Shown: positions 11,343 through 38,734, counted from the first letter of the stretch. The stretch is 64,000 nucleotides of DNA from Candidatus Peribacteraceae bacterium (GCA_030750465.1 JASMHZ010000002.1:1948-65947), one strand, 5' to 3'. Made by a program: numbers and translations. Notes: generated by a model from the sequence alone, not told the origin.

Positions 11343-11450
11343 AATCAACACGCCCCGCTCACGCGGGGCTTTCTACAATCGACAATCAACATCTAAAAAA
11401 ATGTTGAAAGCGCACGGAGTGCGCGTGTCGATTGTCGATTGTTGATTGTC
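11343..11450. repeat. CAATCAACA-scaffold composite hairpin element, copy 1
   Basis: Two inverted units of CAATCAACA-YG-[GC hairpin]-CTTTC.ACAAT. The hairpins are CCCCGC/GCGGGG and GCGCAC/GTGCGC. It lies between convergent stop codons. Confidence 0.7.
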
Positions 11451-12016
11451 TAAGTATTTGCTCTATAGAAAACGAACACTCCGACTGCAAGCACAGTCAG
11501 CACAACTCCGCCAATAGTTCCTACCTTGATTCTTTTATATATGCTTGTGGCAAGAAGGAACAAGAAACAGGCAAGAGTGAAGCTTAGAATCAGAGGAGAA
11601 TAAAGAAATGCCAATACGTAAGGGATATCAAATGATAAAGGTTTTGTGAGCTTATAAAGACCAAGAATATAAGCTGTGAAGTAACCTACAAGAAGCCAGC
11701 CTGCATAAAGCCTAAGTGTATCTAGTAAGTGGAAATAAACTCGACGATTTTTGTTGTTGGATGGAAGTTCGTCTTTTGTGAATTTTACTTCATCATCAAC
11801 TGGAATCTCTGGAGTTGCTTGCCACTGAGGCGGTACAGATTTGATTTTCTTTGACGAATTATCTTTATTTTCGTTCAATGTTTGTTCGTGGATTTCTTCC
11901 GGAACCAGTTGAATATTTTCGAGAGCTGAGTTCGCTGCCTGCAAGCTCTCTGCGTCTATTGTTCCGCGAATAGTTTTTCCATCTTTATCCAGAGCTGTAT
12001 ATGAGAATAAAGGCAT
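11450..12016 (-). CDS. membrane protein with a GspF/PilC N-terminal-like domain
   Basis: N-terminus MPLFSYTALDKDGKTIRGTIDAESLQAANSALENIQLVPEEI resembles the start of T2SS/T4P platform proteins. The C-terminus has 3-4 TM helices. Confidence 0.5.
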   Translation of the reverse strand: MPLFSYTALDKDGKTIRGTIDAESLQAANSALENIQLVPEEIHEQTLNENKDNSSKKIKSVPPQWQATPEIPVDDEVKFTKDELPSNNKNRRVYFHLLDTLRLYAGWLLVGYFTAYILGLYKLTKPLSFDIPYVLAFLYSPLILSFTLACFLFLLATSIYKRIKVGTIGGVVLTVLAVGVFVFYRANT

Positions 12017-12025
12017 GTCTCTAGT

Positions 12026-12946
12026 TTACTCACTCTTATCCAAGTTTTCCATAATATATCTCACAGCTCCCTCTAGTGTGACCGGTGCGCTAATTTCAAA
12101 ATGACGCCCATCGGTCCAGGCCCTGTATCCAACAACATTTGGGCCTTTCTGCTTAATCTGCTTGTCCGAAACACCAAGAGAACTTATGTTTCCAGATACA
12201 AGATTTACATGTATCGGACCTGAGTACAAGTCGCCTAATTCTTCTGAACTTAATTCTACATGCCACAGAAGTGAAGATGTTGTGCCAAAGGATTTGAACC
12301 ACCAGTTGCGGTGTATTGGTACGCAGAAACCGATATGAGCCGTACAGTACTCCTGAGTCCATTGATCAGGTGTGTAGCTTTCGTTAGCCATATTCCTTAT
12401 TCTTTCCGCCAATTCTGCAGTTACTGGGGGCGTTTCAGGTTCTTCTGACGAAGAATCCGACGATTCCGAGGATTCATCATCGTCATCTTCGGTTTCTTTC
12501 TCATCATCATCTGCCTCATCGGTTTCCTCTGTTTCTTCTTCCTCTTCCGTTTCTTCCTCCTCTTTTTCCTCTTTCTCATCAACAATCAACTTCGCACTTT
12601 CTACTCTCATTATCATCCCTCCCTCCTCAACAGTAGGTCTGATAGCGCCGACCATTTCTACATGTTCACCAACGTATCCATTTAAATCCACAATGTCGCT
12701 TTCAAGCAAAATAAACTTACCAGTTTCCAACTGAAGCCTGTGGCTTCCTTGTTGATAAATGCTGATGCCCGCTGGTTTAACAACTCCCTGGTAAATAACG
12801 TTCTTTGTTTCGCGTACTTCAGCCTTTTTCTCTTCACTTGTACTGGATACCAATGGGGCAGTAGATTTCTCTTTTTTCTGCGGTGCTTTGGCACATGCGG
12901 TAGCAACAAGAGCTATAGAGGCTATACATAAAAAGTATTTTTTCAT
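12026..12946 (-). CDS. lipoprotein with an acidic E/D/S linker
   Basis: Lipobox LVATAC and a poly-E/D tract (EEKEEEETEEEEETEETDEADDDE). Confidence 0.6.
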   Translation of the reverse strand: MKKYFLCIASIALVATACAKAPQKKEKSTAPLVSSTSEEKKAEVRETKNVIYQGVVKPAGISIYQQGSHRLQLETGKFILLESDIVDLNGYVGEHVEMVGAIRPTVEEGGMIMRVESAKLIVDEKEEKEEEETEEEEETEETDEADDDEKETEDDDDESSESSDSSSEEPETPPVTAELAERIRNMANESYTPDQWTQEYCTAHIGFCVPIHRNWWFKSFGTTSSLLWHVELSSEELGDLYSGPIHVNLVSGNISSLGVSDKQIKQKGPNVVGYRAWTDGRHFEISAPVTLEGAVRYIMENLDKSE

Positions 12947-13020
12947 AATTCAAAAGGAATTGATGGGGCTATTATAACTTGTTTAGAGGTTTGCAATAGG
13001 AAATTGCGGATAATTACCGA

Positions 13021-13152
13021 AACACGCTCTAAACGAGCTCTCAACATGCTTTGCTGTCAACAATCAACACGGCGCCTTCGGCGCCTTTCAACAATTGGCA
13101 TAGTTGATAGTCGATTGTTGATTGTTGAGAGTCGCGCTTTGCGGGACGTGTT
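13021..13152. repeat. CAATCAACA-scaffold composite hairpin element, copy 2
   Basis: The ends are inverted copies of AACACG-[hairpin]-CTCTCAACA. An inner unit reads CAATCAACACG-GCGCC TTCG GGCGC-CTTTCAACAAT. Confidence 0.7.
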
Positions 13153-13153
13153 A

Positions 13154-14641
13154 TTAGTCGACTGCTGATGTATGCGTTCCTTGAGCTATTTCATCATCTT
13201 CCTCCTTCAGAACAAATTCCGTTGGCAGGCTTCTGGGGAGTGTTTTGTATCTGGATACAATCTGATTTTTCTTCGATGTTCCGTCTTCATATGTGACGTT
13301 ATAAAGCCACACAATCTCATTTCTGTACATTACTCTATCATTAATCTTAAGGTCATCCGGAGCATTTGATTTGAAATAAGGTCCTTTTAATGCAACCTCT
13401 CTTCCATCATCAATTCCATAAAATTTAACGAATGCATCTTTATCCTCGGTGTCGTAGGCCTGAATTAGAATCGGACCCGGAGTATCATTTTCGAATGTAA
13501 GATCCTGGGTGCCCGGATAAATAGTAGCGTCGATTCCAACACCGTATTTTTTATAATAATAAACATAAAGGCTATGACTTCTGCGATCAACAACCGGAAG
13601 TCCGGAATCTATAATTGCTCTATAAGTAGTAGTAGATGCCTGGCAAATACCTCCCCCGGGCGCTGGGCGAAGTTGGTCTCCTTCATATATTACCTTAGCC
13701 ATACTCCAGCCGTTTCCAAGGTTAACGGGGCCGTTTAATGTTTCGTTAAATGAATATGTTTCGCCTGGTTGAACTACGACGTTATGTACATGCTGTCTGA
13801 TTGCTTTTCTTACGTTTCTCATCCTCGACCATGTTGATCCTGTAAAATTAGAACGTCCTGCCCCTAGAAGTGTCAGTTTTCCATCGTCATCACCGTTGTC
13901 GTATGTAACTTCTCCTTCTCTCCATTCAAGATCAAATGAAACTTCCTCATCCCCATTTTCCAGGGATTTGGCAATTTTCTTGGAAGCTTTCTTAATATCA
14001 AGATCATATCCCGGCATTGCAATCCCATCGGTATGTGCTCGCAGGACTGATCCACTTAGCGATGTCTCAGTCAGTGTGATGTCATTAGGAAACACCAGAA
14101 AAAGGAGGGGATCTGTTTCCAGTTGCTTGGCAATTCTCTTTGGACTTACTTTGTATCTTGCTTCGGTCAATGAAAACTTTGACGTAAGCCATAAAGGATA
14201 CTTCTGAAGGCTTACATCCCAAACTTCATCAAGCTCATTTTCTTCCGATGTAAATTTAACATCTATTTTATTCTTAAGTACCTTTTGACGTTTATCTATT
14301 GCGTATGCAAGCGTGTGAATATTAGGTGTCGGGGCTTTGTTTTTTTTCAATCTCTTCTTGAGCCTTTTAGCTATTCGGTAATTAATTGTATCGGGATACA
14401 CAGCTCTATCATTAAATGACGAAATAATCTTTGCATTAAAGTTGCTGGATAGGTCCATCCTTTTCTCCTGAGACACTTTAGGAGCACGTTTTTTGGCTTC
14501 TACGGCAAATTCAGGAGATACTGAGGCTTTGTAGACTGAATATGACGGACTGGAATCCGGAATTGCTACAGTTATTGTCAAAATACTTAAACATATGGCT
14601 GTAGCGTGTGAAAGGTGGCGTTCTCGTCTTGTCATGTTCAT
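13154..14641 (-). CDS. VanW-family protein with an N-terminal TM anchor
   Basis: VanW core motif GGGICQASTTTYRA and an N-terminal hydrophobic helix. Confidence 0.8.
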   Translation of the reverse strand: MNMTRRERHLSHATAICLSILTITVAIPDSSPSYSVYKASVSPEFAVEAKKRAPKVSQEKRMDLSSNFNAKIISSFNDRAVYPDTINYRIAKRLKKRLKKNKAPTPNIHTLAYAIDKRQKVLKNKIDVKFTSEENELDEVWDVSLQKYPLWLTSKFSLTEARYKVSPKRIAKQLETDPLLFLVFPNDITLTETSLSGSVLRAHTDGIAMPGYDLDIKKASKKIAKSLENGDEEVSFDLEWREGEVTYDNGDDDGKLTLLGAGRSNFTGSTWSRMRNVRKAIRQHVHNVVVQPGETYSFNETLNGPVNLGNGWSMAKVIYEGDQLRPAPGGGICQASTTTYRAIIDSGLPVVDRRSHSLYVYYYKKYGVGIDATIYPGTQDLTFENDTPGPILIQAYDTEDKDAFVKFYGIDDGREVALKGPYFKSNAPDDLKINDRVMYRNEIVWLYNVTYEDGTSKKNQIVSRYKTLPRSLPTEFVLKEEDDEIAQGTHTSAVD

Positions 14642-14710
14642 GTTGTTGTCAAAAGTCTGTTTTCTTTGTGTTATTATACTATATATACAGAATATTGCAA
14701 GTATTAAGAA

Positions 14711-16549
14711 ATGTTGTTGAGTACCAAATATTTGTATAAAGTTCGATATATGAAAGAACTTCGGCTAGAGAAAGCGGTTATAACGCTTTCAATAATAACT
14801 TTGGGCATATTTTCATTTTCACTTTCAAATGATTTTGTAGCATTTGATGACGACCTTTTGATATATGAAAATCCGATAGTTTTGGAGTTCAATGGTTCAA
14901 CTTTGTGGAGAGCATTCACAACTTATGATCCTGAGTTGTACGTTCCTCTGACTATTCTCAGCTACCAGATAGAGAGAGCATTATTTGGCTTAAATCCCTT
15001 CATTTTTCATCTGACCAATCTACTTTTGCACCTCGGATCGGTGCTTTTAGTCTTTTATTGTGCTTTGAAGCTGGCCTGGAAGAAAATGGAATATTCAGAC
15101 GCTTTCTGGGTTGGATTGGTCTGCTCAATAATATTTGCTATTCATCCTTTGAACGCAGAGGCGGTCGCATGGGCTGCGGCGCGCAAAGATATTCTCTCGT
15201 CCTTTTTCTTCTTCGCGTCATTCGCCTTTTACATTAGATACTTGGAAGGGGAGGGGAAGCGTCCTTTTATGTGGAGTCTTGTGATGTTTCTTCTGGCTCT
15301 CGGAGCGAAAGCGTCTGTGATCATGCTTCCATTGATACTCGTACTTGTTGATCTTTGGTATAAAAGAAAAATTAGAATAGAAATGGTAATAGATAAAATT
15401 CCATTTGTTCTGCTCAGTGTCATCTTTGGAATTATTGCGATGCTTGGAAAGCAGATGCAGTTGGCTGGTCTTTCTTTAGCTCAGAAACTGTTTCTATCTG
15501 CGAAGGGCAGTGTGTTTTATGTAGGAAAGCTCATATGGCCCAGCAAGCTAAATATTTTCTATCCTCAGGAGTTTCCGTTTGACGTTTATACAGCTGAGTT
15601 GGTGTTCTATGCGGCAGTACTCGTTATCGGAGCAGTGCTGGCAATAGTCTCTTTAAGGAAGAATCGAGTGTTATTCTTCGGGCTGGCATTTTATCTGCTG
15701 ATGCTGATCCCTACGTTTGCAACCTTTTGGAAGAATGGATTTGTATATTACGCAACAGATAGATATCCATACGCGGCACAATTCGGATTAATTCTGGTTC
15801 TAACTTTTGCATTGGTGCCTAAAATCAGATCTTGCAAGAGACTCAATGTTGTAGCTTGTGCGAGTATTGCGCTGACGGTTTTTGTTTCTTTCCTGACGAT
15901 GAGACAATTAGATGTCTGGAAAGACAGCGAAGCATTATTCAGAAATGCTCTGAAATACAATCCAACTTCGGTTCATGCTCTTAATAATCTGGGTACTTCA
16001 TTGTACGATTTAGATAAGATGGATGAGGCGATTGCCGCTTACGATCAAGCGATTGAAATTAATTCCTATATTCCTCAAGTACATACAAATAAAGGTTTAC
16101 TTCTTATCAAGCAGAAGAAAGTGGAAGAGGCAAAGCGAGAATTTATTGCCGGCATTGAAAATGCTCCAAAGAATAGAATGTATATAGAGGATGATCTGTT
16201 GGCATATTATCAGCTCGCAAAGATTCTGGATGAACAAGGGCAATTGCATGAAGCAATCAGAGTACTTGAGAATGCGGCGAAAACTGGGAGTGCATTCGCG
16301 TCATCCCATTATTATCTTGGAATTAAGTACCAGCAGATAGGGGATAAGGAGGGAGCTTATAAAGAGTTCAAGTCAGCTACAGAAATTGATAAAAGGCATG
16401 TTGATGCACATTATCGTTTAGCGGCAGTTAGCGCCGAGCTTGGCAATCTTGATGAAGCGGTTGATGCACTTAAGCGAGTCCAGAGATTGCATCCCGGATA
16501 CGAGCAGACCGAAAAGCATTTGGAAAATATGAGGGATTTGATTAAGTAA
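14711..16549 (+). CDS. PMT/ArnT-like (DUF1736-type) membrane glycosyltransferase fused to C-terminal TPR repeats
   Basis: About 10 TM helices with HPLNAEAVAWAAARKDIL, then TPR units (ALNNLGTSLY..., AHYRLAAVSAELG...). An alternative ATG lies at 14750. Confidence 0.65.
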   Translation: MLLSTKYLYKVRYMKELRLEKAVITLSIITLGIFSFSLSNDFVAFDDDLLIYENPIVLEFNGSTLWRAFTTYDPELYVPLTILSYQIERALFGLNPFIFHLTNLLLHLGSVLLVFYCALKLAWKKMEYSDAFWVGLVCSIIFAIHPLNAEAVAWAAARKDILSSFFFFASFAFYIRYLEGEGKRPFMWSLVMFLLALGAKASVIMLPLILVLVDLWYKRKIRIEMVIDKIPFVLLSVIFGIIAMLGKQMQLAGLSLAQKLFLSAKGSVFYVGKLIWPSKLNIFYPQEFPFDVYTAELVFYAAVLVIGAVLAIVSLRKNRVLFFGLAFYLLMLIPTFATFWKNGFVYYATDRYPYAAQFGLILVLTFALVPKIRSCKRLNVVACASIALTVFVSFLTMRQLDVWKDSEALFRNALKYNPTSVHALNNLGTSLYDLDKMDEAIAAYDQAIEINSYIPQVHTNKGLLLIKQKKVEEAKREFIAGIENAPKNRMYIEDDLLAYYQLAKILDEQGQLHEAIRVLENAAKTGSAFASSHYYLGIKYQQIGDKEGAYKEFKSATEIDKRHVDAHYRLAAVSAELGNLDEAVDALKRVQRLHPGYEQTEKHLENMRDLIK

Positions 16550-16560
16550 TTGGTGGAGCT
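16550..16560. repeat. 11-bp copy of the tRNA-Ala 3' end (possible distal att)
   Basis: TTGGTGGAGCT is identical to 19158-19168, which is the 3' end of the minus-strand tRNA-Ala. Confidence 0.4.
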
Positions 16561-16771
16561 AGCTCGATCAATTTCAAACTCGTTCGGCTCTTCAAAACGG
16601 ATGCGATGACACTAGCAGAAACACTTCATGGATTGAAGATTTCATTGGATACGACCATTTTGACACTTCGCAACCCACCAGAGATGCGGCGTATGCTGGT
16701 CATGTAAAGGTGGTGCCTGTCAATGAGCTAGATCGAGTGATTTCAAACTTTAACAAAATAATTAAGTATGG

Positions 16772-16777
16772 TATAAT
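16772..16777 (+). promoter_or_regulatory. -10 box TATAAT, 6 nt before the ATG (leaderless-type start)
   Basis: The sequence ggTATAATtatactATG would place the transcription start at or next to the start codon at 16784. Confidence 0.35.
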
Positions 16778-16783
16778 TATACT

Positions 16784-18361: not shown

Positions 18362-18450
18362 AGGGAATTATCAAATCGCCCTAACTCTCCAAGAGGCAGG
18401 AGGCTCCAGTTAAAAGTGGGGGTCTGAAATTACAATATTGTAGGACTGCC

Positions 18451-18762: not shown

Positions 18763-18776
18763 TCGTTCAAACTATT

Positions 18777-19322: not shown

Positions 19323-19363
19323 AGCCAGCTGACCTGCCTGCCGGCAGGCAGGGCTACAGCCCC
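19323..19363 (-). repeat. echo of the tRNA-Ala 5' end, split by the 20-bp palindrome
   Basis: AGCCAGCTGA[CCTGCCTGCCGGCAGGCAGG]GCTACAGCCCC compared with the uninterrupted AGCCAGCTGAGCTACAGCCCC at 19215-19235. Confidence 0.65.
19333..19352. repeat. 20-bp perfect palindrome CCTGCCTGCCGGCAGGCAGG, copy 1
   Basis: Perfect dyad. The same 20-mer occurs at 23598-23617, and at 40410-40429 with one mismatch. Confidence 0.85.
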
Positions 19364-21143: not shown

Positions 21144-21173
21144 GTGAATAGTGAATAGTGAATAGTGAATAGT
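21144..21173. repeat. tandem GAATAGT heptamer arm (left arm flanking the four-helix-bundle gene)
   Basis: GT(GAATAGT)x4, complementary to 21552-21583. It abuts the stop codon at 21173-21175. Confidence 0.8.
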
Positions 21174-21526
21174 TAGTTATTCTTCTTAGAAGTTTTCACA
21201 ATTGCGGTTAGCAGTTTTATTAACTCATTCACTTTTATCAATAATTCTTTAACTTCCGATTTTTTGCTTGATCCAACTACGTTGATAAGTTGAAGCCAAT
21301 ATCTGGTTTCTCTCGCCTCCTTTAATGCAATATGCATTTTATGAGCAAAATCTTTTTTGCTTTCTGCATATTGTGCTTCCTGAATATTTGCTCCAATACT
21401 GGTCCCAGATCTAAGTAATTGTTTGCTGATAACAAAAGCCTTTTTATTATTCAGATGACCACAGAATTCTATTATCAAAACGGAGAATTCAAATGATTTT
21501 ACCTCTGCTGGTCCATTTTCTTGCAT
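21173..21526 (-). CDS. four-helix-bundle protein (23S rRNA intervening-sequence protein family)
   Basis: The family core QLLRSGTSIGANIQEAQYAESKKDFAHKMHIALKEARETRYWLQLI, and a length of 117 aa. Confidence 0.85.
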   Translation of the reverse strand: MQENGPAEVKSFEFSVLIIEFCGHLNNKKAFVISKQLLRSGTSIGANIQEAQYAESKKDFAHKMHIALKEARETRYWLQLINVVGSSKKSEVKELLIKVNELIKLLTAIVKTSKKNN

Positions 21527-21551
21527 AGCGGATCAATATACATAAAAAGGA

Positions 21552-21583
21552 CACTATTCACTATTAACTATTCACTATTCATT
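21552..21583. repeat. ACTATTC heptamer arm (right arm, inverted copy of 21144-21173)
   Basis: The reverse complement of cactattcactattaactattcactattcatt is aatGAATAGTGAATAGTTAATAGTGAATAGTg. Confidence 0.8.
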
Positions 21584-23585: not shown

Positions 23586-23624
23586 GTATGTACAATGCCT
23601 GCCTGCCGGCAGGCAGGTACATAC
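23586..23624. repeat. 20-bp palindrome copy 2 inside an extended hairpin (possible dnaK terminator)
   Basis: GTATGTAC-AAT-G-CCTGCCTGCCGGCAGGCAGG-TACATAC, 6 nt after the dnaK stop. No T-tract follows. Confidence 0.6.
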
Positions 23625-26124: not shown

Positions 26125-26133
26125 GTCAAAATT

Positions 26134-26232
26134 ATAGCTTTTAGCTTTTAGCTTGGTTAGCTTTAATTAGTGGCAATAAATTGGTGATTACAGGCTGAAG
26201 CTAGTGAAGCTAAAAGCTATAAGCTAAGCTAT
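26134..26232. repeat. inverted repeat built from AGCTTTT/AGCTAAA words in a divergent promoter region
   Basis: Left arm atagcttttagcttttagcttggttagcttta. Right arm gaagctagtgaagctaaaagctataagctaagctat. Confidence 0.7.
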
Positions 26233-26240
26233 TGGTAATT

Positions 26241-27590: not shown

Positions 27591-27612
27591 TGTGCTATAA
27601 TATAGATTATTG

Positions 27613-28590
27613 ATGATTGAACTAATATCAATAGCGGTTCTGTTTGTCCTTCTCTCCGGCTTCTTTGCAATGGTGGAGGCGGCTGTTTTAAACATTTCTC
27701 ATGCTGAGGTTGAGGAGCTTTGTGTTAAGAAGAAGAGCGGAGCTAGGGCATTTAGAACTGTTACGAGAAAGCTCACCAGGTCAGTCATTGTTCTTGTGAT
27801 ATTTACCAACATTGTAAACATTCTTGGGCCGATAATGGTCGGTAAAATGGCAATTGAGCTTTATGGCAACTTTGCGATTGGTGCTGTTACTGCAATTCTG
27901 ACTCTGGCTACAATTGTTTTTTCGGAAATTATTCCAAAATCAATTGGAGCCCATAGGGCGCCGATGATCGGAAGACTTTCGGCTCCGTACATTCTTGCAC
28001 TTACAACAATACTTTATCCTCTTGTATTGCCCTTGGAAAAGCTTACTGAATTCTTTAAGACTGGAAAGAGGGTCATTGGGAGTGAACAGCAGATAAGATC
28101 TTTGGCAAGCATGGGAAGAAAAGCCGGACACATAGAGAGCGACGAAGGCCAGTTGGTTCACAGGGCTTTTCTTTTGAATGATAGAACTGCCGCGGATGTA
28201 ATGACTCCTCTTAAGGACATCATAAGCGTAAGTGAAGCTTCAACAGTTCGAGATGCTGCGGACAAAGTATTTAAAACGCCTTATTCCAGATATCCGATAT
28301 TCGGTTCTTCAGTCAACGAAGTTAAAGGTCTGGCTATGAGCCAGGATGTTCTGGAGGCGATGACCGAAGGCAAGGATAATGAACCAATAATGTCCTTAGC
28401 AGGGGAAGCATTGATTGTGCCTTCTCAAAAACCTTCTGATGAGCTATTGGCGCTATTCAGAGAAAAGTTCATTCACTTAGCGATTGTTCAGGAAGACGGC
28501 CATACAATTGGATTAGTGACTCTTGAAGATGTGTTGGAGGAGCTGGTTGGGGAGATTGAGGATGAGGCGGACGTTGAGGATAACAGTTGA
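27613..28590 (+). CDS. CNNM/DUF21 transmembrane domain plus CBS-pair protein (TlyC/CorC-like)
   Basis: N-terminal 4-TM DUF21 domain, then a tandem CBS region ending LEDVLEELVGEIEDE. Confidence 0.8.
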   Translation: MIELISIAVLFVLLSGFFAMVEAAVLNISHAEVEELCVKKKSGARAFRTVTRKLTRSVIVLVIFTNIVNILGPIMVGKMAIELYGNFAIGAVTAILTLATIVFSEIIPKSIGAHRAPMIGRLSAPYILALTTILYPLVLPLEKLTEFFKTGKRVIGSEQQIRSLASMGRKAGHIESDEGQLVHRAFLLNDRTAADVMTPLKDIISVSEASTVRDAADKVFKTPYSRYPIFGSSVNEVKGLAMSQDVLEAMTEGKDNEPIMSLAGEALIVPSQKPSDELLALFREKFIHLAIVQEDGHTIGLVTLEDVLEELVGEIEDEADVEDNS

Positions 28591-28594
28591 GGGT

Positions 28595-28728
28595 TGACAG
28601 TCGACAATCAACAATCAACACGTCCGCCTAGGCGGACTCTCAACAATCTATAGCTATATATTGGCTGAATTAGTTGATTGTTGAATGTTGAAAGCGAGTC
28701 CCCAAAAGGGACGAGCATGTTGATTGTC
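28595..28728. repeat. CAATCAACA-scaffold composite hairpin element, copy 3
   Basis: CAATCAACAATCAACACG-GTCCGCC TA GGCGGAC-CTCTCAACAAT, plus an inverted unit with the hairpin GTCCC/GGGAC. The right end overlaps the stop codon at 28727-28729. Confidence 0.7.
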
Positions 28729-30604
28729 ATAATAACTCCATCAACCATGGATTCTCTTTTATCATAATCCTTCTTCTTTCCGATTTATCATCATAGAAAA
28801 AATCAGGAAGCACCTCGATGATCTTATTTATCATTGAAACTGAGTGCTCGCGCATTCCTATTGAATTGTAAATAAGTGCTCCGGTTCTAAGTGTTGGTAC
28901 ATGCATTGGATTCTTGTATAACGCTTCGTGAATCAGATCGTCCACAACAGAGCTTTCAAAATCCAGGAAGCGCAAAGATTCATTCCAAGCAGAAAGCAGA
29001 TCTCCGATGCCATCTTTACCTGATGTAAGGAAGGAATGAAGTTTGAGAGTATCGCGGACTGAATCCTGCAAATACCCTCTTCTTTCAACATCGTCAAAAT
29101 TTGCATTGGCAGAAGCAGAGAGCCAGCTTTGTTCAGCAATCATATTCTGTGCGTTGCTTATAAGTACCGATCTATCAAAAGGAAATAGATAAACTGATTT
29201 TTGTCCTGGTTTAAGATAATCATTTAAATATCCTTCATTGAATAGTACATTGGACTGGAATGATCTGAATCTTGCAGCATTCCATTGCGAGTAAGCGATC
29301 ATGCTTACAAGTACAAGAAATGTGCTGACCAGATATATGGCACACTCCAAGCGTGGCTTCTTTGTTTTTCTTACAGGAAGAGTGACCCCAAGCGAGAGCC
29401 CCATTATCATCCAAAAGAATACGTGCGTTACTGCTGTATCGAAGCTAAAGAGCAGACAAATAGAAGCTCCCAATAATGATAGGAATGAAGTGATGACTAT
29501 CGGTTCTTCCCGTCTTTTCCAGAGGGAATGTAAGTGTTTTGTGAGTAATGTGTAGTAGGCAAGGAGTCCGAGAATACCGAGTGTTATCAGCAGATCAAAT
29601 GGTTTGCTATACGCGCGGTCCACAACTGTCTCCAGCGGTTCATATTCGAATATCTCTTTATCTATAAACTTGGGAGAGAAGAGTGCCATGGAGTCCAGTC
29701 CGTATCCAATCGGACGATGAATGGACATGTCCGCAGAAGCATCCCAAATAACAGAGCGCGAACCGAGCCCAATATGCTGGGTTGGAGTGGAAAAGCGCTC
29801 AGAGAATTCCAATACAGCTGATATTAATATAAGGAACAAGGCAATAGACGTTAAACTGAGCAAGATTTTATTGCTGGCTTTGATTTGTTTCTTCCAGTTC
29901 TCTGATCGAACTACTACTATCGCAAATACAATTAAAAATCCAATAAGCGCAGATCTGCTTGCGGTTGTTGCAAGTACAAGCAAGTTAAGAAGACATAGAG
30001 ATGAGAGAATTGCTTTGGGACGATCTTTGGACTCTTGCATTCCTTTATAAGCGAATGGAAGGGTCAGCAATATAAAGAGCCCGAGGAAGTTCGGTTGTCC
30101 CAGAGTCGAGAATGTCCTGCCAAGAAAAGTTGCATCGTCCCAAGCAGTCTTGAACGGATCAATGCCCAGAATTTGAAAAGCTCCGTAAAGTATTACAAGT
30201 GCATTGCTAAGAACTATTGCATTCACCAAATAAGATTGATTTCTTTTTCTTCTAGCAAACGCGAAAGCGGATAATGAAATCGAAAAGAAAACAAAATATG
30301 CCAAAAGACCTTCGAATCTTGGGGAAGAACCAACAAAGCTAAGTAAAGGAGCTTTTGACCAGAGAGGGGAGATTAGAACAATTGCAAAGAATGAGAGGAA
30401 TAATTTACCTGTTTGTGTTTTATAAAGAGGAGCAAGAGACTGCGGTTTCTCTGCGAATGAAATAATCAAAAGTCCTGCAAGTCCCGCGGCTGAGTAGAGG
30501 AGGAGCTTGGGCAGAACAAAGCCGAAAGAAGGAAGTGGGACAAAAATAATTGTCCCCAACACGATCAGAAGGCCGTAAAAACGAATAGCCCAATCCTTAG
30601 TCAT
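28727..30604 (-). CDS. O-antigen ligase/polymerase-like (Wzy_C) membrane protein with a C-terminal soluble domain
   Basis: About 12 TM helices with the ATTASRSALIGFLIV loop typical of Wzy_C. 625 aa. Confidence 0.7.
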   Translation of the reverse strand: MTKDWAIRFYGLLIVLGTIIFVPLPSFGFVLPKLLLYSAAGLAGLLIISFAEKPQSLAPLYKTQTGKLFLSFFAIVLISPLWSKAPLLSFVGSSPRFEGLLAYFVFFSISLSAFAFARRKRNQSYLVNAIVLSNALVILYGAFQILGIDPFKTAWDDATFLGRTFSTLGQPNFLGLFILLTLPFAYKGMQESKDRPKAILSSLCLLNLLVLATTASRSALIGFLIVFAIVVVRSENWKKQIKASNKILLSLTSIALFLILISAVLEFSERFSTPTQHIGLGSRSVIWDASADMSIHRPIGYGLDSMALFSPKFIDKEIFEYEPLETVVDRAYSKPFDLLITLGILGLLAYYTLLTKHLHSLWKRREEPIVITSFLSLLGASICLLFSFDTAVTHVFFWMIMGLSLGVTLPVRKTKKPRLECAIYLVSTFLVLVSMIAYSQWNAARFRSFQSNVLFNEGYLNDYLKPGQKSVYLFPFDRSVLISNAQNMIAEQSWLSASANANFDDVERRGYLQDSVRDTLKLHSFLTSGKDGIGDLLSAWNESLRFLDFESSVVDDLIHEALYKNPMHVPTLRTGALIYNSIGMREHSVSMINKIIEVLPDFFYDDKSERRRIMIKENPWLMELL

Positions 30605-31649: not shown

Positions 31650-31653
31650 GAAA

Positions 31654-32142: not shown

Positions 32143-32188
32143 ATAATAAAACTACTTGGCTAATCAGGGTAGGGGATTTATGTCTGAA

Positions 32189-32635
32189 TTACTTCTCTTC
32201 TTTAACAACAACCTTCAGTTCCTGCTCTTCCGGTCCGATCTTCAGCTTTACATCAAAATCACCGAGCGCTTTGATGGGCTCGGCGATAATGACCATTGCT
32301 TCGTTTACGTCGATCTTGTGCTCCTTCTTCAGAGCCTCAACAATATGCTTCTCTGTGATAGCAGCATAAAGCTTGCCTGCTTTTGTAACTTTCCTTTCAA
32401 ACTTAAGGCTGAGGCCAGCAAGAGCTTCTGCGGCTCCGGTCTCAAGCTTCTTCTCTAGCTCCTTCTGCTCAGCGCGCCTGCGAATCTCCTCTGCGTAACG
32501 CTTGCGGACTGTTGGAGTGGCGACTATTGCTTTTTGCTGTGGGAGTAAGAAGTTTAGAGCATATCCGTCTCCTACCATTAGTAGGTCGTTTTTCTGGCCG
32601 ACTTTCGGAACATCTTGGAGTAGGAGAACTTCCAT
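32189..32635 (-). CDS. rplI: 50S ribosomal protein L9
   Basis: MEVLLLQDVPKVGQKNDLLMVGDGYALNFLLPQQKA matches the bL9 N-terminal domain. 148 aa. Confidence 0.93.
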   Translation of the reverse strand: MEVLLLQDVPKVGQKNDLLMVGDGYALNFLLPQQKAIVATPTVRKRYAEEIRRRAEQKELEKKLETGAAEALAGLSLKFERKVTKAGKLYAAITEKHIVEALKKEHKIDVNEAMVIIAEPIKALGDFDVKLKIGPEEQELKVVVKEEK

Positions 32636-32788
32636 GGTGGGAAGATTGTTAATGACTGCCTAAAAATAAGGGTAACAGTCATAGAGCCGACAAAGTTTAA
32701 GGAAGTGATGGGGCAGTGTCAAGAGGTGTTTACTCCTCGAGGTTGCTAAATCTTCAGTTTATGGCTTTTGGAAGCTAAAAACTTATTT

Positions 32789-35002
32789 TTACAGTAGTCC
32801 GAACATCCATCTAGGAAAGCTCCACCAGTTTTTACCTGCTTGGAACACCCTTTCTTGCTTTATAAACCAGTTGTGGAGCGTAAGGAACCGGTCTGAATGC
32901 AAAGATAGATTCTTGAGAGCTACACCGCGAACATCCTTGTCGTATGCGAATGTATAAAGAGGGGCATACAGGAATATGGCGGGGACATCGTTCTTCAGTA
33001 CCTCTCGCAGCTCCTCCAGCGAAGTACTTCTCTCGGATTCATTAGAAGTTTGTCTTATAGATTCAAGCAACGTATCTGCTTCGAGAGATGTGTATTGGGA
33101 GAGGTTATAAGCATCTAATCGAAGATCAGATCTCTCGCCCGTGAGCTTTTGCTTCCCGGAACTATGCCAGTATGGATAACTATCCAGATTATCCAAAAGC
33201 GACTGGCCGAAAAGCAGCATGTCGTAATCGCGGCTGAGTAGTTTCTCTTCGAATTTATGTCTGGATTCAGGTATCACGATTGAAACATGGACCCCAAGAG
33301 GCTCCCATTGTTTCTGAATTACCTTCGCAATCTTTTTATATTGCGGTGGATTGGAACTCGTCATCAGGGTTAGCGATAACTTATCGCCTGCTCCGTTTAC
33401 TCTTATGTCATAAGGATCAGTGGAAAGTCTTCTTCTTAACATTCCTTTTTCTCTGTAAAGATCTCTGAATGAGACGCTTAGGTCTACGGCAAGGTCTCCT
33501 TCTCTGGTTTTAATAAATCTCTCAAGTAAATTTTGTTCTTCGTCAGCTCGCTTGAAGTCTTTTGGTTTGTCTGTTCTCCAGAGATAGAAAGAATCAATCG
33601 TTTCACCTTCTGAGTTTTGCAATTTGATTGAATTTGTTCCCAATTTTATACTGCCAGTATTCCCAAGTGTTGGCAGTGAAATAATCCATGCTCCGGACTC
33701 TGTGGGATGATTAACAATGGGAATTGAATTAAGTGTTGATCCAATGGGGGCATCTGCGATACTTCCGGTGATAGTAAGCGCAGCGCCAGTATCCATAAGT
33801 ACAATAGGCTCTATCTTTAGGGCTCCAACTTCATTGGCATCGCGCATTTCCAGAAGATGCTGAAGTCGAACTTTTTCTGGTAGGTGCCAATCAGATTCAA
33901 AAAGCGCTCCTTGAGCAGCTTGCATATCCGATTTATATCTCCAATCTGCTAAATCTATTTCAAGCAGGGGAGTATCAACAATAAGTGATTCGCTAATTTC
34001 ATCAACTATTTCCTGTTTGTTGGTGCCTAATTGCAATCCTGTCCTTAAGAGCTTATCAGAGAGGATAGGACGTTCCATGTTTAGAAACAGTGCAACATAC
34101 TGCGGGAGAGAATATTCGGTAGCAGTAAATTTACGGGGTATGATCGGTTCTCCGCTCTCGTTTCGAGGAACATGACGTACTCCGTCCAAGTTTCTTATGT
34201 CAGATAGAAGTGTTGTGTAATCCGGGAATATTCTAAAAATAATCTGATTAAGGTGGAATATTTCTTCTTTATCTATATCACGCTCGAATCGTTCAAGTGT
34301 TACTTCACTGGACAGCTCAGTTTGAATAAAGCTCTTAAATACGTATGGGCCCGCACCAATGGGGTTGAATCCAAAGTCCAAGGTCTGATCAAGTTTGGAA
34401 ATTGGAATACCTTCAAAAGATCTTTTTGGCAAAATTCCGAGTGTTAAGTTGCTTGGAAAGAAACTGTAGCTTTCAGAAAGTTCGAATCTAATTTTACGGT
34501 CATCTAGTTTTTCCATATCAACTCCAAGGTAGTTTTGTCTAAGGAGTGTATTTGGGAATTCTGGGTCTTGAATTGTTTGGAATGTGAAGATGACATCTTC
34601 CGGTGTTACAAGATGCGGGTTTTCTTTTGTTGAATCATGCCAATGAATATCATCCTTGAGAGTGAGAGTGTAGATTCTGTTGTCGGGACTAACTTCCAGG
34701 GTTGCCAAATCATCTTCAATGAGTTGACTTTCGGGGTTGTATCTAAGAAGTCCGGAAAATACCAGTGATACGATGTCTCTGTTTACATCATTTGTAACCG
34801 AGAACCATGGATTAATTGTTTGCAGCTCGCCAACTGATCCCTCTATGTATGTTCCTCCAAATGCAGGCACAAGGTGTGTGTTGTCCTTCCAGAATTTATA
34901 AAGAAGAACTATGAAGCTAATTGCACAGAGAGCTACTGCGAAGATGAGTATTAATTTGTCCCAGCCTAAATGTGTTTTCCGGTGGATATGAAGCTGATTC
35001 AT
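32789..35002 (-). CDS. family-5 extracellular solute-binding protein (OppA/DppA-like), membrane-anchored, with no adjacent ABC components
   Basis: The block IYTLTLKDDIHWHD...VTPEDVIFTF is typical of SBP_bac_5. N-terminal TM helix. ATG at 35002; TTG at 35074 in the ORF track. Confidence 0.75.
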   Translation of the reverse strand: MNQLHIHRKTHLGWDKLILIFAVALCAISFIVLLYKFWKDNTHLVPAFGGTYIEGSVGELQTINPWFSVTNDVNRDIVSLVFSGLLRYNPESQLIEDDLATLEVSPDNRIYTLTLKDDIHWHDSTKENPHLVTPEDVIFTFQTIQDPEFPNTLLRQNYLGVDMEKLDDRKIRFELSESYSFFPSNLTLGILPKRSFEGIPISKLDQTLDFGFNPIGAGPYVFKSFIQTELSSEVTLERFERDIDKEEIFHLNQIIFRIFPDYTTLLSDIRNLDGVRHVPRNESGEPIIPRKFTATEYSLPQYVALFLNMERPILSDKLLRTGLQLGTNKQEIVDEISESLIVDTPLLEIDLADWRYKSDMQAAQGALFESDWHLPEKVRLQHLLEMRDANEVGALKIEPIVLMDTGAALTITGSIADAPIGSTLNSIPIVNHPTESGAWIISLPTLGNTGSIKLGTNSIKLQNSEGETIDSFYLWRTDKPKDFKRADEEQNLLERFIKTREGDLAVDLSVSFRDLYREKGMLRRRLSTDPYDIRVNGAGDKLSLTLMTSSNPPQYKKIAKVIQKQWEPLGVHVSIVIPESRHKFEEKLLSRDYDMLLFGQSLLDNLDSYPYWHSSGKQKLTGERSDLRLDAYNLSQYTSLEADTLLESIRQTSNESERSTSLEELREVLKNDVPAIFLYAPLYTFAYDKDVRGVALKNLSLHSDRFLTLHNWFIKQERVFQAGKNWWSFPRWMFGLL

Positions 35003-35113
35003 TTTGTGAGGATAGAATAATGGAATATTGGAGTATTGGTAACTTGTTTGTTGCTGAAGATGATATTGAAACAATATCCCAATATTCTATTATTCCAATA
35101 TTCGAATAGGTTA

Positions 35114-35335
35114 TTATCCGATGTACCAAAGCAACACAGGTATAAGTAAAAACACAAAGCTACTCCAAATAGCCAGTCTGAAAAGAAGCTTTTCGGCTCC
35201 TCTTCTTTGAATGTATGTAGTTGCGCCCCCGCCGCCAAATGTAGCAGATAGTCCGGATGCTCTGTGTTGCAAGAGAATGCAGATCATCAGAACCACGGAT
35301 GTGATTGCTTCAATTAAGAGTAAGAGTTTTACCAT
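35114..35335 (-). CDS. secG: preprotein translocase subunit SecG
   Basis: 73 aa with two TM helices and the motif ILLQHRASGLSATFGGGG. Confidence 0.85.
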   Translation of the reverse strand: MVKLLLLIEAITSVVLMICILLQHRASGLSATFGGGGATTYIQRRGAEKLLFRLAIWSSFVFLLIPVLLWYIG

Positions 35336-35460
35336 ATGGGAGGAGTTTAGTAGGGAAGGGGTTTTTGGGCAATCAGATAGGCATGTTTGATGTACATTGT
35401 GACTATTGACAAATATATATAAATATGGTTATATAACCTACTTTAATAAAAGTAATAATT

Positions 35461-36327
35461 ATGTCTGACGAAAGCAATGTACCCGATAATGCAATATTGC
35501 ATGCACCAGAATTCCTGCTCCAAATGGATGAAAGGCATCGTGTTATGTTTATGGGATTTTTAAACCAGCAAACAATTTATGAATTATTAAAAGGAAACGA
35601 CGGTCAATCAAACTCGTTGTATGCGTCTATCTGTTGCGATGATGACTATATATCATGTCAACCAAATGAATCAGTATCCCGTCTAGGTATACGTACTTAT
35701 AAACCGAATGCAAAGATTGTCTGGCAAGCATTGCGAAATTTGTTAAATGAATGTTGTATTCATGTTGAATTGCCTCGGTATGAAGAAGACCAGCTTACTG
35801 ATGCTGATGATGCACTTGAGAATAGTAGCCCTGAATACCTTAGTCATATTAACCATGCAATTATTGCAAGACGGTTACAAGATGCTTTAGAAGAAGCAAA
35901 TGGTAATGGAACACAGATATTGTCTGACATGCTTAATAGGCAGAGAGAAAGAGTAAGAAAGATTATGAAAACGTTTGGCTCCGATAGAGATCCCCTTGGT
36001 GAAGAAATTCTTGATCTACTCACAATACAACCAGACGAAGTTATTAATCATGAAGGAGGCTGGTTTAACAGTTACAGAGTCGATTCTATTGTGCTTGCAG
36101 ACAACCATGTGCCATCAAGTGTGATAAAACATTACTTTGATCACTACGACCTAGATAAAGAGGACGATATGCAATTCAAGAGGTACAGAGTGCTTCGAGT
36201 AACAGTATATCCGGCGGCATCACAAGAAGATCACTTCTATCGTTGGTATGACTTTATGGATGGTACATTTATTTCTCAATCACTAGAAAGTGACACGTTC
36301 ACAATAGAGGAACAAAGAGGCTCCTGA
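35461..36327 (+). CDS. hypothetical protein
   Basis: 288-aa ORF, cytoplasmic-looking, Cys-containing N-terminal half. No family recognised. Confidence 0.5.
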   Translation: MSDESNVPDNAILHAPEFLLQMDERHRVMFMGFLNQQTIYELLKGNDGQSNSLYASICCDDDYISCQPNESVSRLGIRTYKPNAKIVWQALRNLLNECCIHVELPRYEEDQLTDADDALENSSPEYLSHINHAIIARRLQDALEEANGNGTQILSDMLNRQRERVRKIMKTFGSDRDPLGEEILDLLTIQPDEVINHEGGWFNSYRVDSIVLADNHVPSSVIKHYFDHYDLDKEDDMQFKRYRVLRVTVYPAASQEDHFYRWYDFMDGTFISQSLESDTFTIEEQRGS

Positions 36328-36422
36328 GCAATTAGATAGGAAAGAGAATGGCTTGTCACGCGAAGCACAACGTAATTACTTCTTCGCAAAGCTTCGCGGG
36401 GCACACTTCGCTGTGCGAAGTG

Positions 36423-36500
36423 TGGTGGGCGATACAGGGGTCGAACCTGTGACCTTCTGGGTGTAAACCAGACGCTCTAGACCAACTGAGCTAATCGCCC
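36423..36500 (-). tRNA. tRNA-Val (anticodon TAC), CCA encoded
   Basis: Acceptor stem GGGCGAT/ATCGCCC, anticodon stem TCTGG/CCAGA, loop TTTACAC. Confidence 0.93.
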
Positions 36501-36704
36501 ATACACGTGTATTGTATCAGAATAGCATCAAAATCTTAGTAACAAAGTAGAAGAACCCAAAATGCAAGATGCCAAGAGGACAAGGAAAAACCAAAATTAT
36601 AATAAATTAAGGCTTGTTATATTGAATAATGTTTTTGAGATTTCCTTGAATTCTTGAGGCCTTGACATTTCTTATTTTGTAGCCAAATTGTAAGGTAAAC
36701 ATAC

Positions 36705-36733
36705 TTGACAAATTTGTATCTCACTATTATAGT
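36705..36733 (+). promoter_or_regulatory. sigma-70-type promoter TTGACA-N17-TATAGT
   Basis: Consensus -35 and a near-consensus -10, 33 nt upstream of the ATG at 36766. Confidence 0.6.
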
Positions 36734-36765
36734 CACAACCTTTTGTTTATCCCAAATCTGTAGAT

Positions 36766-38550
36766 ATGCTTAGAATCGCTAAAAGGACCCGCATATTGGC
36801 AAGTATCGGAGTCCTCACATTGGCCTTAACAGCAGTGCACAGCATTGTCGTCCAAAATGCATTTGAGGGCGTATCTGCGGTTATTTTTCCAGAATGCTCA
36901 GATGGGATAGATAACGACGTAGATGGCATAATTGACTATCCATTGGACCATGACTGTGATTCTCCTAATGACTTGCAGGAAGGTACTACGGACAGAGATC
37001 TATATATGACGATATCTGACGGATTGGATGATATTAATTCTGAAGATAATGCGACATATACAATTGGACTAAGGACCGATAGCAATCAGCCAGAGCTTGT
37101 AACAGTCCGTTTTTATAAGCCACAATTTTCTACTGTAACTACTGCGAGTGAGAATGGAAGGATTGCAGGAAATACAGTGATATGGAAAGACACAGTTATC
37201 CACCCGGGATACGTAAAAGAACTTTTCGTAAACATACATTTGAATAGTGATGCACGAGAAGGGGATTTGATTATTGCTGAAGCATATGCGGGAGACATCC
37301 GAGTAACCGATACAACTCGCGTACACGATGGAAATGAGATGCGAGTTCCAATGGAAATTTTTGTAGATGATGGAAAGATTTATGCAGAGCCGGATGAGGT
37401 GCTTACGTATCAGGTTTTGGTAAAGAACACTTTCGGCGAAGACCGCGAGTTTACACTCAGGACACAGCTTCCTCCTCCGCTCCATTTCATAGGTGCTTCC
37501 GGAGAATATAAAAGGACAAATAGGTCAGTTGAATGGGAGGATCAATTCCTTCCTGCAGGTGGTGAAGCATTGTATGAACTTAAAGCTCAAATTGATCGTG
37601 AAACAACAGAGTTTGGAACGTTGCGTGTTCGCTTTGCAGTAGAGGCAGCATTTGGAACAGATACAACTACAATCCTTTACGAAGAGCTTCCTCCAGCAAC
37701 AATTGACGTAGGAATGACTGATGGATACAGCGAGGCCAAAGTTGGAGAATTGCTAACGTATGCCATAAATATAAAGAACAATCAGACAAAACTCGTTCAG
37801 GGTGTGGATGTAAAAGGCGCAATCCCTATGTACACTGAATTTGTCGACGCTTCCGAAGGTGGTTACTGGAATGGACAGGATATCTTCTGGAAAGGAGTAA
37901 CGATCAGTCCTCATGGATCCAGAATTCTTCTATTAACAGTAAGAGTAAGACGTGATGCTCCTCTTGGAGCAATTATGAGGGGGAGCGTAAGTGTTGAAGG
38001 CCGCGAGGCTGTGGATCAAACAGTCGTATCTGAAAGGAATGTTAAGAGTGGACAGACTGTCGAAAGGCCTAAGGATACTAACACACTGCTGAGAAAAATC
38101 GCAGATAGGCATGAAGTTCGTCCGGGCGACACTGTAAGGTATTCAATTTACTTGAAGAATACTTACGGTCATCCAATCCGTAATGTGAGAATTGAAGATA
38201 GAATCGATTCGCAATTCAGCGCGATTGTTGATGCTCAGCAAGGAGTAATGGAAGGTGATCGAATTGTGTGGAATGTCCCTGTTCTAAATCCAGGAGAAGG
38301 ATGGGAAGTACATTACACTGTTAGAGTTTTTCCAAATGTTCCACACGGAATGGAGATTGCAAATATCGTCTCTGTTAATGGGGAAGGCCTAGAATCCATT
38401 TCTCTATCTGAAAGGGTAAGAGTAGGTTCAGTTGGAGTAGTAACTAAAATGCCTAAAAGCGGAGCCCCCTTGGATGTCATCTTTGCTAGTTTAATGGCTG
38501 TACTGGGTGGTGTGCCTACGATACTAATTAGACGTAGATATATAATCTAA
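36766..38550 (+). CDS. secreted DUF11/CARDB-like repeat surface protein with a C-terminal sortase-type sorting signal
   Basis: Signal/TM helix at the N-terminus and the motif ECSDGIDNDVDGIIDYPLDHDCD. Repeated DUF11-like beta modules (GDTVRYSIYLKNT..., GELLTYAINIKNN...). Tail KMPKSGA plus a hydrophobic helix plus RRRYII. Confidence 0.7.
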   Translation: MLRIAKRTRILASIGVLTLALTAVHSIVVQNAFEGVSAVIFPECSDGIDNDVDGIIDYPLDHDCDSPNDLQEGTTDRDLYMTISDGLDDINSEDNATYTIGLRTDSNQPELVTVRFYKPQFSTVTTASENGRIAGNTVIWKDTVIHPGYVKELFVNIHLNSDAREGDLIIAEAYAGDIRVTDTTRVHDGNEMRVPMEIFVDDGKIYAEPDEVLTYQVLVKNTFGEDREFTLRTQLPPPLHFIGASGEYKRTNRSVEWEDQFLPAGGEALYELKAQIDRETTEFGTLRVRFAVEAAFGTDTTTILYEELPPATIDVGMTDGYSEAKVGELLTYAINIKNNQTKLVQGVDVKGAIPMYTEFVDASEGGYWNGQDIFWKGVTISPHGSRILLLTVRVRRDAPLGAIMRGSVSVEGREAVDQTVVSERNVKSGQTVERPKDTNTLLRKIADRHEVRPGDTVRYSIYLKNTYGHPIRNVRIEDRIDSQFSAIVDAQQGVMEGDRIVWNVPVLNPGEGWEVHYTVRVFPNVPHGMEIANIVSVNGEGLESISLSERVRVGSVGVVTKMPKSGAPLDVIFASLMAVLGGVPTILIRRRYII

Positions 38551-38577
38551 AAATGTCCATTAATTGTTATTTTAGCT

Positions 38578-38734
38578 ACCAAACACGCCCTAAAGGGCTT
38601 TTAACACGCTCATCCGCCCGAGGAGGCGGATTCGCTTTCAACAATCAACAATGACAAATGTGGAGAGCGAAGAAGCGTGCCTGCCGCGCCGTAGCCCGCA
38701 GGCGAAGGATGGTTGATTGTTGATTGTCGATTTG
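38578..38734. repeat. CAATCAACA-scaffold composite hairpin element, copy 4
   Basis: AACACG-CCC TAAA GGG-CTTTTAACACG-...ATCCGCC/GGCGGAT...-CTTTCAACAATCAACAAT, and at the far end an inverted GGTTGATTGTTGATTGTCGAT. Confidence 0.7.

Follow-up and report, generated by a model that had tools for sequence, protein, structure and literature searches.

The window examined here, a stretch of 64,000 nucleotides, covers positions 1948-65947 of contig C22 in the genome of a Candidatus Peribacter bacterium, which belongs to the Candidate Phyla Radiation (CPR) lineage. This assembly, referred to below as G000 (1.0 Mb, 42% GC, 64 contigs, 82% complete), had its genes called by a longest-open reading frame (ORF) heuristic, and its congeners carry similar labels (e.g., G005 and G007). 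The window harbors four composite repeat elements, located at 11343..11450, 13021..13152, 28595..28728, and 38578..38734, in which GC-rich hairpins of variable sequence are embedded in a constant scaffold of short tandem heptamers. We consider that these four elements are probably dispersed, gene-less copies of a selfish element of the intervening sequence (IVS) type, comprising a proliferated lineage of the S23p/IVS kind. This assignment is drawn from sequence comparison, since the same arms and units bracket a gene of the S23p family (Pfam: PF05635) at the site of element 3 in G005, on contig C62 of G000, and within the 23S rRNA gene of G002.

A preliminary description of the window had announced four composites with at least nine units, all placed immediately 3' of genes. 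The four composites are all present where it located them, and a strict unit pattern (ACA[CT]G-core-CT.T[CT][AGT]AC plus heptamer context) returned nine units, to which a tenth is added at 38583-38605. Element 1 lies between the convergent genes 10530..11318 (+) and 11450..12016 (-), its right end adjoining the TAG stop of the latter, and is composed of a forward unit followed by inner heptamers and a 10-nt loop, then a reverse unit, and finally outer heptamers. The forward unit (11348..11376, +) reads ACACG CCCCGC-TCAC-GCGGGG CTTTCTAC, and the reverse unit (11403..11428, -) reads ACACG CGCAC-TCC-GTGCG CTTTCAAC on the minus strand. Element 2 is located between the tandem minus-strand genes 13154..14641 (VanW-like) and 12026..12946 and comprises three forward units and a reverse one: ACACG CTC-TAAAC-GAG CTCTCAAC (13022..13045, +), the minimal ACATG CTTTG CTGTCAAC (13044..13061, +), ACACG GCGCC-TTC-GGCGC CTTTCAAC (13067..13092, +), and a unit with the imperfect stem TCCCGC-AAA-GCGCGA, bearing one C.C/G.G mismatch (13124..13151, -).

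Element 3 is also found in a convergent gap, between 27610..28590 (+) and the Wzy_C-like gene 28727..30604 (-), for which its right end provides or overlaps the TGA stop. Its forward unit, ACACG TCCGCC-TA-GGCGGA CTCTCAAC (28618..28644, +), belongs to a class with a T-A pair beside the base, while its reverse unit, ACATG CTCG-TCCCC-TTT-GGGGA-CTCG CTTTCAAC (28687..28720, -), is nested and exhibits a TC/TC internal loop. Comparison of the orthologous ends in G005 and G007 (window 28727-28760) revealed that the Wzy_C-like C-terminus varies between species (ESMVDGVIM* versus ESVA*), because the element shifts the end of the frame. Element 4 follows the DUF11 gene 36766..38550 (+) and stands just before 38724..39020 (+), which encodes a KhpA-like KH protein. 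It contains two forward units, ACACG CCC-TAAA-GGG CTTTTAAC (38583..38605, +) and the nested ACACG CTC-ATCCGCC-CGAGGAG-GCGGAT-TCG CTTTCAAC (38604..38642, +), followed by inner heptamers and a degenerate reverse part, in which a GCCTGC/GCAGGC hairpin lies at 38679-38703; outer heptamers (38711-38734) come last.

When folded, the composites are predicted to form an outer and an inner arm duplex from which the GC hairpins branch off, with z scores of -8.0, -8.9, and -3.9. The first of these values corresponds to element 1, with an arm-to-arm stem plus two side hairpins at -52.5 kcal/mol, and the second to element 3, at -58.7 kcal/mol. A search of the 64-kb window against Rfam at gathering scores returned only five tRNAs and no known RNA family on the elements, and the papers searched gave no account of these repeats in Peribacteria. 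Throughout G000, the elements occupy 22 convergent and 26 tandem gaps, at most one or two real divergent ones, and a few positions inside ORFs; the convergent share (22 of about 58 placed) compares with 20% among intergenic gaps in general, and the distance to the stop codon ranges from 0 to 7 nt. The placement immediately 3' of genes holds in the window, whereas genome-wide there are also copies within ORFs and in at most one or two divergent gaps, one real composite occupying such a divergent gap. These repeats also matter for the annotation of streamlined CPR genomes, where they take up many 3' intergenic gaps, provide stop codons, and change the C-termini of proteins.

Unit architecture and pairing of the hairpins

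The units conform to the general arrangement (ACAATCR)n ACAC-G-[X]-C-NNN-G-[X']-C-TNTCAAC (AATCRAC)n, in which the number of ACAATCR heptamers per arm varies from 1 to 14. The hairpin module ACA-CG...CT-NTCA replaces one heptamer, ACA-A-TCA, and thus remains in phase with the array. The strict pattern yielded 77 units in G000 with 67 distinct cores, about 40 of the units being paired head-to-head, and the genome contains 46 copies of CAATCAACA on one strand and 48 on the other, against about five expected per strand. In a composite, a short spacer separates at least one forward unit from at least one reverse unit, and all gene-less composites exhibit the same arm order, an ACAATCA arm followed by a TGATTGT arm. 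The flanking G and C pair in every unit and most loops are T-N-C with a C-G closing pair, so that the base and the center of the hairpin belong to the constant scaffold. The variable part X extends from 0 to about 8 bp and forms a nested series, from the minimal unit ACACG CTTCG CTTTC, with a 2-bp stem (14 of 77 units), to long stems bearing a small unit as their loop. A TC/TC internal loop is conserved in 16 units (CTC[hairpin]TCG). The two hairpins within one composite never match each other; T-class hairpins number exactly one in 16 composites, none in nine, and two in no case, a distribution that is only suggestive of a rule of one T-class and one other hairpin per composite.

Base pairing within the cores was assessed by exchanging arms between units. 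Among 52 units of G000 with cores of 11-18 nt, 89.6% of the mirrored positions were Watson-Crick pairs, compared with 44.6 +/- 3.1% (maximum 57.5%, 2000 trials) after the 3' arms had been swapped between those units. In three other species, 44 units analyzed independently gave 86% against 42 +/- 4% on swapping, 23 of the 44 foreign cores being also present in G000. In a gap-free alignment of 26 units, both sides change at four of the six pairs, and the doubly changed cells amount to 46 against 19.6 +/- 3.2 in shuffled alignments, none of 500 shuffles reaching 46, while all slid registers collapse; the 17 unpaired cells of this alignment represent the sub-type with the conserved TC/TC internal loop. 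Altogether, at least 29 distinct arm sequences are present, all of them paired. A search for additional copies with non-pairing cores, which would have spoken against a conserved fold, disclosed about five units with a single mismatch or wobble and one odd non-pairing core, located beside a gene-carrying copy in G006. The family consequently offers an unusually clean case of covariation, with a constant scaffold surrounding a stem of free sequence that is paired throughout.

Orthologous sites, compared at a few loci, exhibit the same behavior. The stem of unit 13022..13045 is CTC/GAG in G000, CCC/GGG in G005, and TCCA/TGGA in G007, and that of unit 13067..13092 is GCGCC/GGCGC in both G000 (loop TTC) and G005 (loop TGC), with CCCC-TTT-GGGG in its place in G007. 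Two compensated pairs distinguish the G000 and G005 versions of unit 11403..11428 (CGCAC/GTGCG versus GGCGC/GCGCC), and the G005 orthologue of unit 11348..11376 retains the stem with an altered loop. The imperfect stem of unit 13124..13151 is a perfect TCACGC/GCGTGA in G005 and G007, its G000 version (TCGCGC/GCGGGA) reflecting a mirrored change to the same base. Over the orthologous sites of G000, G005, and G007, six of the seven changed pair positions are compensated and none is one-sided, while the scaffold is nearly constant and the loops are free to vary. Judged from these alignments, pairing is maintained in place across speciation, which points either to a use of the hairpin or to a process of repair or conversion. 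Wobble pairs were too few for a G.U bias to indicate the functional strand.

According to the second of these options, pairing would be kept by mutation and repair, either through gene conversion among copies, for which the scaffold supplies the homology, or through template switching in quasi-palindromes, the elements themselves being plain junk inserts. Such conversion would agree with the fact that the same hairpin variants recur from locus to locus and from species to species. One orthologous unit in G007 differs in stem length and in several pairs at once, as in a swap, G000 and G005 have different heptamer flavors throughout one orthologous element, and the mirrored G.G change described above is not a change to the complement. 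Conversion, however, accounts for the spread and not for the origin of the at least 29 paired arm sequences; moreover, the single compensated pairs in otherwise identical orthologous hairpins (e.g., CTC/GAG versus CCC/GGG) look like point changes, and loops vary freely beside intact stems. We regard it as unlikely that repair and conversion explain the pairing as a whole. The preliminary description had read the combination of conserved structure and free sequence as the signature of selection on folding; the covariation among paralogues and orthologues agrees with that view, whereas repair or conversion could yield pairing as well. Every stem it listed is present, and its statement that the stems all differ needs the qualification that a limited set of variants recurs between loci and species. 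The formation of a new hairpin at each insertion is disfavored, as identical hairpins recur at several loci (e.g., the GCCCTTCGGGC hairpin, three times in G007).

Gene-carrying copies and the occupation of sites

The relationship with S23p genes emerges from the genomes of the genus. At the element 3 site, G005 conserves the same architecture in a CAATTGA flavor, with a 125-residue PF05635 gene (S23p, 23S rRNA-intervening-sequence protein) inserted between the units in the order ACACG-hairpin-CTTTTGACAATTGACA, PF05635 gene, inverted unit. In G000, a PF05635 gene (C62:34093-34404) is flanked by CAATCAA arms with a TCCGCC hairpin. The two proteins are mutual best hits with 63% identity, compared with 25-47% for paralogues, and the protein matches the solved S23p XCC0516 of Xanthomonas (PDB 2GSC). 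The closest relatives of this pair, found in G005, G003, G006, G001, and G007, are all located behind an (ACAATCA)n left arm in constant polarity, and a (TGATTGT)n right arm is present in G005, G003, G006, and G001; for the G007 relative, the gene of which is cut at residue 108, no right arm was seen. G004 and G002 contain almost no CAATCRA repeats and are without a close cognate gene. The genomes of the genus carry 11-21 PF05635 genes each, and 10 of the 11 in G000 are surrounded by inverted tandem-heptamer arms, each with its own word. A PF05635 ORF in the loop, the arrangement typical of IVSs, is observed in the full-length copies of G000 (C62), G005 (C14 and C77), G003 (C1), G006 (C152), G001 (C23), and G002 (C49), the four window copies being gene-less.

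The G002 copy resides in a 23S rRNA gene, which contains a PF05635 gene of the cognate lineage with heptamer arms and an ACACG TCCCTTTGGGGA CTTTCAAC unit. By eye, the insert was placed between the conserved CCGUAACUUCGG and GACUGUUUACCAAAAACACAG blocks of the rRNA, and its predicted fold is a long stem formed between the arms, whose loop contains the gene and from whose side the unit hairpin branches (z -5.0). This 23S rRNA gene (C49:13709-20121) spans 6.4 kb and also holds a group I intron (Rfam: RF00028, 50.5 bits), which Rfam reported together with a single global LSU match; the 23S genes of G004 and G001 are 1.1-1.6 kb too long. The G000 assembly is without a 23S gene, and it does encode RNase III (rnc, C6:3728-4111).

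The ORF-bearing IVSs of 23S rRNA in Coxiella burnetii and Leptospira (Warrier et al. 2016, PMC4990558) comprise the closest known system. In Coxiella, the S23p ORF lies in the loop of a 28-bp terminal stem that is cut by RNase III, the element contains tandem heptamers in variable number, and its origin is unknown, mobility having been proposed (PMC4990558). The elements of the genus share with it the gene family, the position of the gene in a loop closed by paired terminal inverted repeats, and arms with a variable number of tandem heptamers, and the G002 congener has a member of the lineage, with the ACACG unit, inside its 23S rRNA gene. They differ in that the window copies do not lie in an rRNA helix but behind or between protein genes, one copy elsewhere in the genome being in frame in dnaE, in that about 40 gene-less copies exist per genome, and in the additional GC hairpin modules with free stems in the arms, which have not been described for IVSs. 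RNase III cutting, known for Coxiella, is putative in the present elements. No function for PF05635 and no description of such dispersed, gene-less IVS-type copies were found in the papers searched, and the 23S rRNA IVS with its S23p gene has remained a 30-year-old puzzle of origin, function, and movement. The present genus offers a live-looking family, with gene-carrying and gene-less copies that share the same arms, filled and empty sites, a 23S copy, and an in-frame dnaE insertion, in which the mobility of IVS elements and the role of S23p become testable with ordinary assays.

The behavior of the copies at orthologous sites is that of an insert. All eight genomes of the genus contain the double heptamer, whereas it is missing from all 33 genomes searched from other genera of the same family and class. 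In G007, the element 3 site is empty, with the convergent stops 9 nt apart and a flanking protein 92% identical, and so is the element 1 site, where the stops overlap in CTAG; in G005, the latter is filled by a different heptamer flavor. Both G005 and G007 have orthologous elements at the element 2 site. The dnaE gene of G000 (C15:2600-2720) carries a 93-nt CAATCGA composite with two minimal units, which is in frame, adds 31 residues to a loop of DnaE, and is not present in G007 or G003 (flanks 84-93% identical), bringing the filled/empty pairs against G007 or G003 to three (element 1, element 3, and the dnaE copy). The same DnaE loop contains a repeat-like insert of a different kind in G001. 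Another copy (C11:11250-11416), with a TCCGCC hairpin in its left arm and a right arm of (TCGATTG)x3, is in frame within an HMG-CoA-reductase-like ORF, and a further one lies within a giant ORF of G000. The C11 arms enclose 90 nt that code for a conserved GGGT...Q..CL segment, that is, host coding DNA stands between the arms. On the evidence of these alignments, copies are inserted at gene ends, occasionally in frame within genes, and are retained there.

Proposed origin and alternative explanations

Comparison of the copies with shared arms gives the layout of the IVS-type element. A complete element consists of an (ACAATCR)n left arm, a four-helix-bundle gene (PF05635), and a right arm of inverted heptamers, each arm holding from zero to two in-phase modules of the form ACAC-G-[stem-loop]-C-TNTCA. 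As the comparison of gene-carrying and gene-less copies shows, an element that has lost its gene is reduced to a head-to-head composite like those of the window. On transcription with the neighboring genes, the arms are predicted to anneal into a long stem that carries the two GC hairpins as branches, and, by analogy with rRNA IVSs, this arm stem would be a likely substrate of RNase III. At the RNA ends so produced, the GC hairpins may act as stable caps, as barriers to exonucleases, or as weak terminators, and a role in end capping or termination would demand pairing and not sequence. The preliminary description had proposed either a protein or RNase recognition site or a bidirectional terminator. 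The former appears closer to the evidence, by analogy, since IVSs of the type to which the family belongs are processed by RNase III, a terminator role being at best secondary.

Several observations weigh against this model. Only a handful of the CAATYRA-armed copies carry the gene, and at 30 other PF05635 loci of the genus the arms are of a different kind and the ACACG unit is absent. The other heptamer flavors of G000 lack the GC hairpin module, which is hence dispensable for this type of element and represents an addition of the CAATCRA lineage. No transposase-like partner was found, movement being deduced only from the filled and empty sites, and a target-site duplication sought at the three filled/empty sites was not visible, the flanks having diverged. 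The side branches split the arm duplex into helices of 10-16 bp, which are short for RNase III, and the pairing in old, immobile orthologues could stem from gene conversion or from template-switch correction of quasi-palindromes.

A broader proposal, which we advance as a tentative possibility with the odds against it, is that S23p proteins act as specificity factors in a widespread and so far undescribed class of mobile hairpin elements, the rRNA IVS being only its best-known landing site. Each protein lineage would recognize its own heptamer word, and in Peribacter one such lineage would have multiplied to about 40 gene-less copies per genome, served in trans, the hairpin modules being structure-only parts either needed by the machinery or protecting the cut RNA ends. 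If true, it would account for the pairing kept in old copies and in frame in dnaE.

The elements could instead be intrinsic terminators evolved by the host and acting in both directions, each hairpin with its flank stopping the gene it faces and the scaffold words being equivalents of the A- and U-tracts. Their position at gene 3' ends, the convergent enrichment and near absence from divergent gaps described above, and the GC-rich stems, which like those of intrinsic terminators follow stop codons and require pairing at free sequence, are all in keeping with such a role, and the reverse reading, a hairpin followed by GUGUUGAUUG, tops a terminator-like scan. A canonical hairpin plus T-run was found within 130 nt of only 16 of 930 ORF ends (three of them CAATTGA-flavor units with a CTTTTGAC tail), which indicates that intrinsic terminator signals exist but are rare in G000, and the genome might use something else. 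However, G007 lacks any hairpin at the two convergent gene pairs of elements 1 and 3, so the host does not need hairpins there, and the family is restricted to the genus and polymorphic like an insert. Copies are also found in frame in dnaE, in the HMG-CoA-reductase-like gene, and in the giant ORF, as well as in the 23S rRNA IVS, and units with only a 2-bp stem account for 14 of the 77. The gene-facing tail CTNTC is a poor U-tract with no U-run, and the G/U-rich heptamer tail stands on the far side; the terminator-like signal comes from the far unit only, the reverse-reading tail GTGTTGATTG of which passes a lenient scan. The claim that these are bidirectional terminator modules of the host ending at CTTTC finds no support in this form, as the hairpins came with the insert, and we consider a host origin improbable. 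A capture of pre-existing host terminators by the arms was ruled out as well, given that the empty sites are without a hairpin and the units are in phase within the heptamer array.

A very improbable origin is mobilization of the hairpins as repetitive extragenic palindromic (REP) sequences in inverted doublets by a REP-associated tyrosine transposase (RAYT; Y1 transposase). In its favor stand the high copy number, the extragenic inverted pairs at gene ends, and the Y1_Tnp (Pfam: PF01797) genes present in all eight genomes (four in G000, three of them RAYT-like). In addition, the loops on one strand have the form of GNA triloops with a C-G closing pair, which are very stable in single-stranded DNA. 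However, GAGAGCACGTCTTCGACGTGC and GTAGCGCGGGG... hairpin families, and neither ACACG units nor CAATCRA heptamers, surround the RAYT-like genes. No composite has two matching hairpins, in contrast to a REP doublet forming hairpin (REPIN) with its two REPs, no GTAG head is present, and the gene-carrying copies hold PF05635 instead of a RAYT. The link to RAYTs was ruled out, as all four PF01797 genes of G000 are flanked by other hairpin families. A reverse transcriptase of the diversity-generating retroelement (DGR) type, considered as the mover in view of the Avd-like fold, was also ruled out, no RVT_1 being detected in G000 and the reverse transcriptases of G005 and G007 lying beside separate, weak-scoring PF05635 genes. 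These two reverse transcriptase genes (G007 C13:8168-9846 and G005 C72:358-1494) and their PF05635 neighbors are probably true DGR Avd-reverse transcriptase pairs, distinct from the heptamer-armed cassettes.

Resemblance to other repeat classes is partial. The REPs, bacterial interspersed mosaic elements, and REPINs of proteobacteria are likewise short, GC-rich, extragenic palindromes of high copy number, arranged in inverted pairs with short spacers, found at 3' ends and inside operons and rare in divergent promoter regions, and REP-type palindromes are thought to stabilize upstream mRNA. In the present family, the stems vary and the flanks are constant, the reverse of REPs, no RAYT is flanked by the units, and the tandem-heptamer arms and four-helix-bundle parent gene are foreign to REPs. 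Rickettsia palindromic elements and repeats resembling miniature inverted-repeat transposable elements (MITEs) are also palindromic, of about 100-150 bp, and located between genes as well as in frame in essential genes; their sequence, however, is unrelated, and the present elements differ by showing no visible target duplication and by having tandem-heptamer arms and a gene-carrying form. Terminal inverted arms, a MITE feature, are present, but no parent with the same ends was found to encode a transposase, the parent coding only for a 120-aa four-helix-bundle protein that is no known transposase. The heptameric tandem repeats of Xanthomonas (GGGAATC) and Nostoc (GGGGAYT/STRR) have been described as single, G-quadruplex-forming arrays of variable copy number, which are transcribed and enriched close to stop codons in the gaps separating aligned or convergent ORFs (Rehm et al. 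2015, PMC4692102). The elements described here also contain 7-nt arrays of variable number, whereas they are A/C-rich, occur in inverted pairs with hairpin modules, and are tied to a PF05635 gene. Finally, unlike intrinsic terminators, the units are found in ORFs and rRNA and are absent from the same sites in a sister species.

Other repeat families in the genome

Period-7 repetition is widespread in G000, where 162 tandem arrays lie outside ORFs, 59 of them with an inverted partner within 800 nt. Their flavors include CAATTGA/CAATGGA, GAATAGT, AGCTTTT, GTCACAG, AATTTTC, and others, with window examples at 21144-21583 and 26131-26233; most are gene-less, a few enclose a PF05635 gene, and none of these flavors has the GC hairpin modules. 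Other families of intergenic GC hairpins with constant flanks and varying stems are also present, such as CCCCTCTCCT...AGGAGAGGGG (about 35 copies), CCTGCCTGCCGGCAGGCAGG, GTTCCGC-N4-GCGGAAC, and cttc-GTCCGCC...GGCGGAC-tacgagggg, with examples in the window at 7449-7540, 19333-19352, and 23596-23619. The RAYT-like Y1 genes at C4:20970-21520 and C8:8822-9322 of G000 have REP-like hairpins of their own, GAGAGCACGTC-TTC-GACGTGC and GTAGCGCGGGG..., and copies of the former are found in the window within a 152-bp MITE-like element (5162-5178, 39465-39481, and 51883-51935).

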